Source: Nanopusillaceae archaeon
Lineage (GTDB): Archaea > Nanobdellota > Nanobdellia > Nanobdellales > Nanobdellaceae
Assembly: GCA_049973735.1 (NCBI GenBank)
Contig: JBMFJL010000003.1
Location: 1 to 28,936, forward strand
Direction of reading: 5' to 3'
Length of the DNA stretch: 28,936 nt
Shown here: one piece after another, positions 7,966-13,509 of the stretch
Numbering within the stretch: the stretch's first letter is position 1
How the letters are laid out: the number at the start of each line of letters is the position of its first letter
Notes under the pieces: generated by a model
The model's input: the letters and a program-made list of their open reading frames with translations, nothing else
The model's database searches: none
Told to the model about the DNA's origin: nothing
Made by a program: the position numbers and the translations under genes

Positions 7966-8211
7966 TTAAAACTTCTTTAAATATTCTTCTAATTTTTCCT
8001 TTATCTCTTTGTCGTTCAGTAGATTATGAATTTCACTAATTTTTGAGTCTACAGAAAGTATTTTTCTATATAATATTGCTAAAGCGATCCATATTTGTGC
8101 TCTAGCCGGATCATCAGAGTTCATATATACGTCCTTGTATTTTTTAACTTCTTCTAGTAGAGATTTCAAAAAATCTCTTAGTACGGGATCTAGATTATCT
8201 TTCCAGTCCAT
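7966..8211 (-). CDS. Hypothetical small helical protein
   Basis: 81-aa ORF that overlaps the 3' end of rpl18 by 17 nt, so co-transcription is likely. I recognise no family. Confidence 0.4.
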
Positions 8212-8797
8212 ATTCTTTTAATATTTTCTTTTTAACTTCTTCAAAATGCTCAACAATTTTTTCCGGTTCTAATCCCACTTTTAGATACCTAGAGAATTGT
8301 TTTTTGTATTTTTCCGGATTCTTCTCCTTTAATAATAAAGCATAATTTTTTATATGTTCTCCCCTTATCCTTTCTTCTGATGGCAATATTTCTTCACCAT
8401 GTGGAATTTCTAATCCAGCATCTAATGCTCCTTTTAGTACAGCAAATAAAGAATTTCCTTTTGTTTTTGAATATCTGCCAATATCCAATATTGCTTCATT
8501 AATTCCTCTCTTTTTTGCTTCTAAACCAATGAGTAAACCTACTAAATATGCTGTTGGTAAATTTCCTCTATGACCTTTCCAACCATATTTCTTTTCCAAT
8601 GTTTTAGAATGTACTGTAATCAAGGTTTTATCTCCTCTTTCATCATATTGTATAATTTGTGCTATAAAATTGTTTAAATGTCTCCTTACTACTAATCTTA
8701 GTTTACCAGATTTCAATAACTTTAATCTCTTTCTATAGTCTGTAATATTTTCTCTTCTCCTTCTATATTTTACTACATATCTGGGACCATGAGCCAT
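8195..8797 (-). CDS. rpl18: Ribosomal protein uL18 (L5e family)
   Basis: 200 aa. [49 protein letters not shown] is a typical archaeal L18 N-terminus. Confidence 0.9.
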
Positions 8798-8832
8798 TTA
8801 ATTATTATAAATGAAAATAATTTAAAAATAAG

Positions 8833-8916
8833 CGCCGCGGGTGGGATTTGAACCCACGCCCCCTTTCGGGGAATGGATTAGCAATCCATCCCCTTGGGCC
8901 ACTCGGGCACCGCGGC
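8833..8916 (-). tRNA. tRNA-Ser (anticodon GCU), class II with a long variable arm, no intron, no encoded CCA
   Basis: The reverse complement reads GCCGCGG-UG-CCCGAGUGGCCCAAGGGG-AUGGA-UUGCUAA-UCCAU-UCCCCGAAAGGGGGC-GUGGG-UUCAAAU-CCCAC-CCGCGGC-G. The cloverleaf was folded by hand and the anticodon loop is UU-GCU-AA. Confidence 0.9.
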
Positions 8917-8919
8917 ATC

Positions 8920-8977
8920 TGTTCCCCGCCCATCGTTACCAATACTCATGCTTTCATATTGGTTCTTCGAAGCGGGG
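8920..8977 (-). ncRNA. Candidate single-hairpin H/ACA-type guide sRNA placed as a 5' leader of tRNA-Ser
   Basis: The minus strand reads CCCCGCUU/CGAAGA/ACCAAUA/UGAAAGCAUGAG/UAUUGGU/AACGAU/GGGCGGGG/A/ACA/GAU, followed by tRNA G1. This gives an 8-bp lower stem, a 6+6 nt internal loop and a 7-bp upper stem. The apical loop is closed by U-G plus tandem G-A/A-G (K-loop-like). There are 15 nt from the upper-stem base to ACA. A TTTAAAAA element (rc of 9001-9008) is centred about 27 nt upstream of the hairpin base. Confidence 0.45.
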
Positions 8978-9000: not shown

Positions 9001-9012
9001 TTTTTTAAATAC
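9001..9012. promoter_or_regulatory. Shared or bidirectional TATA-like element between the hairpin/tRNA-Ser unit (minus) and the NurA-like gene (plus)
   Basis: TTTTTTAAATAC lies about 19-30 nt upstream of the ATG at 9031. Its reverse complement lies about 27 nt upstream of position 8977. The AT-rich background makes this weak evidence. Confidence 0.25.
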
Positions 9013-12693: not shown

Positions 12694-13509
12694 TTATTCT
12701 TCTAACTCGTATCCATCAATTCCTCTTTCTCTTACAATTTTTCCCCATTCCAAGATTTTTTCTTGTCTTTTAATTTCGTTTTCAACAATTTTATCCATTA
12801 TTTTTAAATTTTGAACACCCTTTATTTCTACTTTTTCTCCACCTTCTATCGATATATTAAGATCTTGTCTGATTGTACCCAAACCTCTCTTTACCTTACC
12901 AGTTAATCTAAGTATTAATCCTATATATTCAGCTATTTCTTTTACTTCTTGAGGATTTGTCATATCAGGGCCTGTAGATATTTCAATTAGTGGTATTCCC
13001 AGCCTATCTAATCTATAAATAATATATTTTTCACCTTCTTCTATTTTTCTTGCGGCATCCTCTTCAATACATATTGTTTGTATCGTTATTTCTTTATTTT
13101 TATACTTTATTTTTCCGTCTAAAGCTAATAGTAATGTTCTTTGAAATCCAGAAGTATTAGATCCGTCTACTACAATTTTTCTCATAACTTGTAATACTTT
13201 TGGAACATACATGTTAAAGTATGTAGAAATTAGTAGTCCAAATTTTAATGCTTCTAAGTTTATTAGATGTGGTGGTTCTTCATCAAGTTCTACCAAACAA
13301 GAATATTCATTAGAATACTCATATATGTATAGTTTATCTTTCATTGTTTCATATTCTGCAGCTACATCTTTTTTTCCAATTTCACTCTGTGTTACCCTTA
13401 GTTTTCTTTCTATTCTATGAGTATAATTATCGAAAAGCTCTGTTGGACATGAACAGAACAACTTTTCTTTGGTATTTAGTTGTTGATGTATCTCTAAACC
13501 AGCTTTCAT
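12694..13509 (-). CDS. gatE: Glu-tRNA(Gln) amidotransferase subunit E, N-terminal catalytic (cradle) domain only: a split or truncated gatE
   Basis: 271 aa. GLEIHQQLNTKEKLFCSCPTE, RKLRVTQSEIGKKDVAA, VELDEEPPH, VDGSNTSGFQRT, IEEDAARK, RLGIPLIEISTGPDM and KRGLGTIRQDLNISI all match GatE. Full-length GatE is about 600+ aa. The ORF stops where the AspRS-like insertion domain would begin. Confidence 0.85.
   Translation of the reverse strand: MKAGLEIHQQLNTKEKLFCSCPTELFDNYTHRIERKLRVTQSEIGKKDVAAEYETMKDKLYIYEYSNEYSCLVELDEEPPHLINLEALKFGLLISTYFNMYVPKVLQVMRKIVVDGSNTSGFQRTLLLALDGKIKYKNKEITIQTICIEEDAARKIEEGEKYIIYRLDRLGIPLIEISTGPDMTNPQEVKEIAEYIGLILRLTGKVKRGLGTIRQDLNISIEGGEKVEIKGVQNLKIMDKIVENEIKRQEKILEWGKIVRERGIDGYELEE

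Follow-up and report, generated by a model that had tools for sequence, protein, structure and literature searches.

What is the G+C-rich hairpin that stands directly in front of a serine transfer RNA (tRNA-Ser) gene in the genome of a Nanopusillaceae archaeon? The hairpin lies at positions 8920 to 8977, minus strand, of a 28,936-nucleotide (nt) stretch of DNA, hereafter the window (GenBank assembly GCA_049973735.1, contig JBMFJL010000003.1, positions 1 to 28,936). A first-pass annotation, made from the sequence letters, had described it as an H/ACA-guide-like hairpin fused to the tRNA as a 5' leader. Here, the locus is read as a single-hairpin box H/ACA small RNA (sRNA) gene placed head-to-tail with tRNA-Ser in one transcription unit, with a probability of roughly 0.6. 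For the narrower statement that the hairpin is truly of H/ACA type, or was derived from such an RNA very recently, our confidence is high.

The hairpin sequence agreed base by base with the earlier annotation, and its two-stem structure was recovered by folding. The minimum free energy (MFE) was -22.7 kcal/mol, compared with -10.6 +/- 2.5 kcal/mol for shuffled sequences (z = -4.9), and 0 of 200 shuffles were as stable. In the 155-nt putative precursor, the hairpin and the tRNA formed two independent folding domains. The whole window was also scanned for base composition. As had been claimed, the hairpin contained the only non-coding 50-nt segments with at least 50% G+C, tRNAs aside. The parts of the unit are given below in the direction of reading.

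9002 to 9009, minus strand: TATA-like box A, TTTAAAAA, at -32 to -25 from the first stem C; consensus match, presumed promoter of the sRNA and tRNA.
8970 to 8977, minus strand: lower stem, 5' strand, CCCCGCUU; pairs with 8924 to 8931 through six G-C and two U.G pairs.
8964 to 8969, minus strand: pocket, 5' strand, CGAAGA, putative 5' guide; unpaired internal loop in the consensus structure.
8957 to 8963, minus strand: upper stem, 5' strand, ACCAAUA; seven Watson-Crick pairs with 8938 to 8944.
8945 to 8956, minus strand: 12-nt K-loop, UGAAAGCAUGAG, read as U-GA-AAG-CAU-GA-G; its 3' AUGA aligns with the HgcG consensus.
8938 to 8944, minus strand: upper stem, 3' strand, UAUUGGU; from the fold and the consensus structure.
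8932 to 8937, minus strand: pocket, 3' strand, AACGAU, putative 3' guide; identical in four of seven copies.
8924 to 8931, minus strand: lower stem, 3' strand, GGGCGGGG; from the fold and the consensus structure.
8920 to 8922, minus strand: ACA box, preceded by a single A and 15 nt 3' of the upper stem; present in seven of seven copies.
8917 to 8919, minus strand: spacer GAU from ACA to tRNA +1; presumed 3' tail of the sRNA after cleavage by ribonuclease P (RNase P).
8833 to 8916, minus strand: tRNA-Ser(GCU), G1 at 8916; detected by ARAGORN and by Rfam RF00005 at 59.3 bits.
8824 to 8831, minus strand: T-rich run UUAUUUUU, immediately 3' of the tRNA; from the sequence, the presumed terminator.

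The rules for productive archaeal H/ACA guides were described by Toffano-Nioche et al. (2015). The lower stem has 7-9 bp, the 3' guide has 5-6 nt, and the upper-stem closing pair lies 14-15 nt from ACA, within a range of 14-16 (PMC4652768). The most discriminating feature is a GA stem of exactly 10 stacked layers, counted from the closing pair to the second sheared G.A, which was found in 14 of 15 productive Pyrococcus guides (PMC4652768). The GA stem in the window also has 10 layers, i.e., seven Watson-Crick pairs, one U.G (the 3n.3b pair), and G.A plus A.G. The hairpin was therefore assigned to fold type '10/6/9', with a 10-layer GA stem, a 6-nt 3' guide and a lower stem of 8-9 bp; its 5' guide is also 6 nt. 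The K-loop consists of the 3n.3b pair, the tandem sheared G.A/A.G, and a 3-nt L1-L3 bulge on the 3' side. Its pattern, N-GA-N3-N3-GA-N with the 3' bulge as in the HgcG consensus (AUGA), makes it a predicted L7Ae site at the sequence level. The H/ACA architecture proposed earlier was upheld in every structural rule tested, and the 10-layer GA stem, which the first-pass annotation had not used, was found in addition. The lower stem of the window is separated from ACA by one A, within the 0-1 nt expected before the ACA/ANA box of archaeal guides.

A side observation concerns the pocket. The sequence CUUCGAAG (8965-8972, minus strand) is a perfect 8-nt palindrome, made of the top of the lower stem and the 5' pocket strand, and it occurs in the window variant only. 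It permits self-closure of the pocket in the MFE fold (UCG/CGA) and could allow dimerisation.

The unit of hairpin, ACA and tRNA-Ser was found upstream of the L18 gene in seven genomes. These are the window, a Nanopusillaceae metagenome-assembled genome (MAG; L001), Nanoarchaeota archaeon YN1 (L002; at about 288.3 kb of AP031373.1), L015, the ENA contigs L109 and L110, and L126. L110 is truncated 5' of the 5' pocket strand. The first-pass annotation had pointed to compensatory changes at homologous loci as a sign of a real structure, and such changes were present among the six relatives. Pairing statistics were taken from 16 pairs in the five full-length, well-formed copies. Standard pairs filled 97.5% of the cells, versus 40-49% when the partner columns were slid. 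Two double compensatory changes were found, i.e., C-G to U-A in the lower stem (L002, L109) and A-U to G-C in the upper stem (L001). Both GA dinucleotides and ACA were invariant in all seven copies, while the loop bases between the GAs drifted, and the K-loop closing pair appeared as U.G, U.U, U-A or C-G. The geometry was kept as well. The 10-layer count was the same in six of seven copies, and the pocket had 6+6 nt. The lower stem had 8 bp in the window, 9 bp in L002, L015 and L109, and 9 bp with a 1-nt bulge in L001. The distance from the upper stem to ACA was 15 nt in the window, L002, L015 and L109, 16 nt in L001 and 14 nt in L126. The relatives' copies folded with z = -2.8 to -7.1, apart from the weaker L126. 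This degenerate copy (770-827, ENA ERZ27246779 k141_11365), placed before tRNA-Ser(GGA), gave -12.4 kcal/mol and z = -1.7. Neither the C.A mismatch of its upper stem nor the mismatched or bulged A of its lower stem is compensated; the lower stem also has a G.U, and L3 of the K-loop is C. The hairpin may be decaying in this lineage.

At the L18 locus the hairpin was absent from Nanobdella aerobiophila (L112), which has tRNA-Ser(GCU) alone, from L111, which has tRNA-Glu there, and from N. acidilobi and Nanobsidianus-type genomes. Covariance model R1 detected no further copy, either in the window or among 31 nanoarchaeal or related loci. Matches on viral contigs were two identical phage coding sequences and were rejected as chance.

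The joint features were also searched with a descriptor, i.e., an 8-bp lower stem, a pocket of 5-9/5-6 nt, a 7-bp upper stem, an N-GA...GA-N loop, and ACA at 14-16 nt. In 1.6 Mb of fetched archaeal loci, only the window element and its homologues were matched, and no match occurred across 4.8 Mb of block-shuffled sequence. In Rfam, the sole match of small nucleolar RNA type was HgcG/Pab40 (RF00064, archaeal H/ACA), obtained with permissive thresholds and below the gathering score. The scores were 22.2 bits for the window, 23.1 for L015 and 29.3 for L002, with E = 3e-4 to 2e-6 in 501-nt searches. In the window alignment, the stems, AUGA and ACA aligned to the last hairpin of the three-hairpin model.

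The two pocket strands changed in different ways. The 3' strand was AACGAU in four genomes, AGCGAU in L109 and L110, and AAUGAU in L126. All of these changes are transitions (A>G, C>U) that retain G.U pairing to a fixed 5'-AUCGUU-3', as would be expected, judged from the sequences, if this strand were a guide. The 5' strand was AGACGA in L001, L002, L015 and L109, AGAAGA in L126, and CGAAGA in the window. From these strands, 5'-AUCGUU-U-N-UCGUCU-3' is predicted as the target in most relatives and 5'-AUCGUU-U-N-UCUUCG-3' in the window.

Targets were searched in ribosomal RNA (rRNA) and tRNA. Alignments of 16S and 23S rRNA from N. equitans and six other archaea, with E. coli reference rows, were taken from the supplement of Dennis et al. 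2015 (PMC4644070). A further nanoarchaeal 23S 5' fragment was found by protein search with spurious open reading frames (ORFs) translated from N. equitans 23S. All rRNAs scanned came from organisms other than the Nanopusillaceae that carry the hairpin. As a control, shuffled guides were run against 3.8 kb of rRNA; 9/12 pairs were reached in 15%, 10/12 in 1%, and 11/12 in none. By this control, a match of 11/12 or better in a future rRNA would carry meaning.

Several results weigh against a guide gene. The motif RUYGUUU was absent from the eight aligned rRNAs, i.e., seven archaea and E. coli. No site with at least 9/12 pairs was found in N. equitans 16S (complete) or in about 2.1 kb of its 23S, and none in the 5' 1.8 kb of the other nanoarchaeal 23S (L119/L120). 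The complementary site that the first-pass annotation had predicted for rRNA or tRNA was thus not found in these rRNAs, and the tRNAs of the window were likewise without a bipartite site. The 5' guide variants are transversions, from which a single fixed target would suffer mismatch; either the target varies between genomes or some positions are unpaired. The covariation is suggestive, not statistically strong. The five full copies have 91% mean column identity, and because the sequences are so close the evidence is thin, 10-12 of 500 shuffles equalling the observed covariation. The mismatches in both stems of L126 suggest weak constraint in at least one lineage. At gathering thresholds, no H/ACA family of Rfam was matched. 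Because 22-29 bits is far under the 77 bits needed for RF00064, the likeness to this family is one of resemblance, not of membership; the Rfam comparison suggested by the earlier annotation gave HgcG/Pab40 as the only H/ACA match, yet below threshold. Lastly, no genes for cbf5, nop10, gar1, L7Ae or RNase P proteins were found within the 29-kb window.

The main alternative built on these results is an orphan or decaying H/ACA-derived leader, which may bind L7Ae or Cbf5 but guides nothing and is removed by RNase P. The lack of a target in any rRNA scanned, the transversions in the 5' guide and the uncompensated mismatches of L126 are in its favor, as is the confinement of the hairpin to one subclade, with absence at the locus in Nanobdella, N. 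acidilobi-type genomes and others. However, the 10-layer GA stem is perfect in six of seven copies, which also retain the GA/GA of the K-loop, ACA and the 14-16 nt spacing. The stem changes are compensated, the 3' guide changes only by wobble-compatible transitions, and the rRNAs scanned belong to lineages other than the hairpin carriers. This alternative is considered unlikely, and we lean towards an active, trans-acting pseudouridylation guide.

Individual target candidates were rejected as follows. A guessed 23S site lay in domain II (E. coli ~570-585, UUUCGUCUUGAAACACGG in archaea); its nanoarchaeal version, CCACCGUGCGUAUGGAAGAACGUG, is not complementary. A second partial lead in 23S, GCAAAUCGUUCCCAUGACC, is ruled out by its nanoarchaeal version AAAAUUCCCUCUCAUGACC. 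A metagenome scan for RTYGTTTNTCGTCTNGNANCACG, which belongs to the domain II candidate, gave 26 loci, all of them chance matches in non-rRNA contexts. In the peptidyl transferase centre region (U2504 context) and in 16S h34 (CCAUCGUCAGCUCGU), the register was off by one or the target base was not U, as judged by eye. In the D-arm of tRNA-Glu, U8-G15 (UCGUCUAG) can form pairs with 8 nt of the 5' guide found in the relatives, but C6 falls where the target base would be. In tRNA-Ser, scanning and inspection by eye showed no bipartite site in the body, the anticodon arm or the T-loop.

The 23S fragment used in these scans has features of its own. L119/L120 (Logan SRR31758307, SRR28178319) contain the 5' ~1.8 kb of a nanoarchaeal 23S gene, whose first ~700 nt have 79% identity to N. 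equitans. In this 27% G+C DNA, the 23S starts about 150 nt from a divergent prolyl-tRNA synthetase (ProRS) gene. It appears that 23S is unlinked to 16S and adjacent to proS in the L119/L120 group. In a Nanopusillus MAG, ProRS is represented by a partial fragment from the N-terminus only (P0208), perhaps a sign that a contig breaks off at the proS-23S locus. No further rRNA was obtained through proS neighbourhoods.

The linkage of the hairpin to the tRNA was examined in all copies. The spacer from ACA to the tRNA is 3 nt in the window, 4 nt in L001, 1 nt in L002, L109 and L110, 5 nt in L015, and 4 nt in L126. The first-pass annotation had stressed that ACA lies 3 nt from the tRNA, as in a canonical ACA-NNN end. 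This is correct for the window, but the exact distance is not conserved in the relatives; what they share is a short tail. The spacer region of L001 reads ACAACAU, in which two candidate ACA boxes overlap. At most three U occur in any spacer (L015 UUUAU, L126 UUUA), and no run of at least five T was found between ACA and the tRNA. No TATA-like box was found 22-33 nt upstream of tRNA +1, where the window has GAGUAUUGGUAA, i.e., stem and guide sequence. A TATA-like box ends 23-25 nt before the first stem base. It is TTTAAAAA in the window, in agreement with the box reported earlier, and TTTTATAA in L001, L002 and L109; TTTATAA also occurs among the relatives' boxes at the same distance. The layout is dicistronic at the consensus level, with a box before the hairpin, none between hairpin and tRNA, and the T-run UUAUUUUU after the tRNA. 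Because the 1-5 nt spacer contains neither promoter nor terminator and the TATA-like box is upstream of the hairpin, the simplest reading of the sequence is one transcript of about 150 nt that would start at the hairpin and include tRNA-Ser.

These signals resemble those of N. equitans, in which tRNA and H/ACA promoters have TTTAAA about 26 nt upstream of the start and polypyrimidine terminators follow the tRNA genes (PMC3491384). For the terrestrial nanoarchaeon Nst1, Podar et al. reported genes for three RNase P proteins, an RNase P RNA of unusually small size and shared RNA-modification genes, but no split tRNA genes (PMC3655853). The earlier annotation had noted that a tRNA leader would imply a 5'-leader endonuclease, in contrast to the leaderless tRNAs of N. 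equitans. The contrast stands, but the enzyme is not new for such organisms, as RNase P was already reported in Nst1. RNase P RNA gave no match in the window or in the fetched loci. Co-transcription of the hairpin with tRNA-Ser and its release by RNase P are considered likely.

The same region could instead hold two independent genes, with the sRNA terminating after ACA and a leaderless tRNA transcribed from a promoter inside the hairpin. The model is N. equitans, in which tRNAs are leaderless and the H/ACA sRNA has its own promoter and terminator (PMC3491384), and the U-rich spacers of L015 and L126 could give some termination. Yet the stretch where the tRNA promoter would be expected contains G/C and has no TATA-like box, the spacer is a single nucleotide in three genomes and its U content is low in all, and RNase P has been reported for terrestrial nanoarchaea (PMC3655853). 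Two separate genes are therefore improbable.

Under the preferred dicistronic sRNA-tRNA unit, transcription would start 0-3 nt upstream of the hairpin, with the TATA box ~27 nt further up. The transcript would span the hairpin, the 1-5 nt spacer and the tRNA, and would stop at the T-run after the tRNA. One RNase P cut at tRNA +1 would produce both the mature 5' end of the tRNA and the 3' end of the sRNA, i.e., ACA plus 1-5 nt. The released RNA of ~60 nt would be bound by L7Ae at the K-loop and by Cbf5-Nop10-Gar1 at the lower stem and ACA. It would then guide pseudouridylation at a 5'-AUCGUU-U-N-UC(G/U)UC(U/G)-3' site.

A further observation concerns the tRNA of this unit. The syntenic tRNA-Ser has the anticodon GCU in the window versus GGA in the six relatives. 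The difference is nearly confined to the anticodon arm, positions 28-44 (window 8873-8889, minus strand). Outside the arm, the tRNAs differ at most at positions 16 and 19, and there is no difference from L002. The anticodon arm of the window is identical to that of Nanobdella tRNA-Ser(GCU), which stands at the same locus without the hairpin. On these comparisons, the window tRNA-Ser looks like the product of an anticodon-arm swap or of gene conversion between tRNA-Ser paralogues. A connection between the odd 5' guide and the odd anticodon of the window was considered and rejected; there is no clean correlation, as L126 has AGAAGA with GGA.

Even less probable than two genes is a plain structured leader of the tRNA, i.e., a hairpin for stability or processing whose H/ACA likeness is coincidental. 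The Rfam scores well under the family threshold and the missing target would agree with it. However, the joint match of H/ACA features never arose in the shuffled sequence, and the unpaired pocket, ACA and GA are conserved while the loop drifts, which a stability hairpin would not need.

RNase P shares the L7Ae subunit in other archaea. Least probable is a cis-acting leader ribonucleoprotein (RNP) that serves as a tRNA-Ser maturation device and not, or not only, as a trans guide; L7Ae/Cbf5 placed 1-5 nt from the tRNA 5' end would recruit the strongly reduced nanoarchaeal RNase P, or Cbf5 would be delivered to the nascent tRNA for guide-independent U55 modification. The modification machinery would thus assemble in step with the processing of the tRNA. 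The missing rRNA target and the 5' guide transversions are compatible with this role, but nothing positive supports it.

The proposed H/ACA sRNA gene can be compared with known systems. With the archaeal H/ACA sRNAs of Pyrococcus (Pab40/HgcG RF00064 and Pf9; PMC4652768), it shares several dimensions: the lower stem is 8-9 bp long, the 3' guide in the internal loop measures 6 nt, the GA stem has 10 layers and is capped by a K-loop, and ACA lies 15 nt from the upper stem. Unlike these sRNAs, it is a single hairpin with an AU-rich upper stem and abuts a tRNA rather than being a free-standing gene. In N. equitans, a Cbf5-type gene (NEQ454) and an H/ACA sRNA of 159 nt, between NEQ389 and NEQ392, were reported (PMC3491384). 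The latter is alike in phylum, K-turn-type GA/GA bulges, ACA and the TTTAAA box A. It differs in being a double hairpin with its own promoter and terminator, unlinked to a tRNA (PMC3491384), and the guides of its hairpin 2, GAGAGU / UGUUAG, are unrelated to those of the window. N. equitans also has no RNase P, unlike the terrestrial Nst1.

Closer in gene arrangement are the dicistrons of tRNA and C/D RNA, i.e., N. equitans tRNA-Val-sRNA8, I. hospitalis tRNA-Ser and T. tenax tRNA-Pro, in which one precursor is cut by a tRNA-processing endonuclease (PMC3491384). The plant tRNA-Gly-snoR43 dicistron also yields a guide RNA and a tRNA from one precursor (PMC7994747). In the tRNA-C/D dicistrons, the C/D RNA is downstream and its 5' end is made by ribonuclease Z (RNase Z), whereas in the window the H/ACA RNA is upstream and its 3' end would be made by RNase P. 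Literature searches found no report of an H/ACA RNA upstream of a tRNA with an RNase P-made 3' end. In mammals, RNase P cleaves 5' of the tRNA-like fold of MALAT1/MEN-beta-mascRNA and so makes the 3' end of the upstream non-coding RNA. MALAT1/mascRNA is the nearest functional analogue known to us, but it is a eukaryotic long non-coding RNA with a tRNA-like element and no guide function, and no kinship exists.

H/ACA sRNAs themselves are well known in archaea; we regard the sRNA family, its arrangement upstream of a tRNA and the proposed processing as new. If processed as proposed, this would be the first H/ACA guide found whose 3' end comes from RNase P cleavage of a downstream tRNA, and the unit would be the mirror image of the tRNA-C/D sRNA dicistrons cut by RNase Z. 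It would be the second H/ACA sRNA family for Nanoarchaeota, for which one RNA has been described so far. It would also offer a natural substrate on which to study the unusually short RNase P of terrestrial nanoarchaea, since a bulky hairpin that would form an RNP lies only 4-8 nt from the cut. Such a unit would illustrate how non-coding RNAs in extremely compact genomes have promoters and processing enzymes in common. It is amenable to direct testing in cultivated relatives, e.g., YN1.

The window comes from a nanoarchaeon of the terrestrial, hot-spring type. Its DNA is rich in A+T and carries five tRNAs, archaeal replication genes and dispersed genes for ribosomal proteins. A strict pattern search found no C/D-box sRNA in it. 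Directly downstream of tRNA-Ser is the L18 gene, a 200-amino-acid ORF at 8195-8797 on the minus strand with its ATG at 8797. The closest L18 proteins are those of the Nanopusillaceae MAG L001 (87% identity) and of YN1 (85%, complete genome), and the identity to Nanobsidianus and Nanopusillus is 79-84%.

Some 25-30 nt before the L18 ATG there is a TATA-like UUUUUAAAU, and the T-run UUAUUUUU overlaps it (window 8798-8832, minus strand). Because of this overlap, the L18 mRNA is probably leaderless, with its promoter shared with the tRNA-Ser terminator. In the Nanopusillus sp. contigs L121-L125 (1-1127), an AAA_14/DUF4143 ATPase gene stands directly upstream of L18, in the position held elsewhere by the tRNA or hairpin. 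This arrangement points to a local rearrangement or insertion. At 12694-13509 on the minus strand, a 271-amino-acid ORF contains only the N-terminal catalytic domain of GatB/GatE, and it may be half of a split amidotransferase gene, a type common in Nanoarchaeota.

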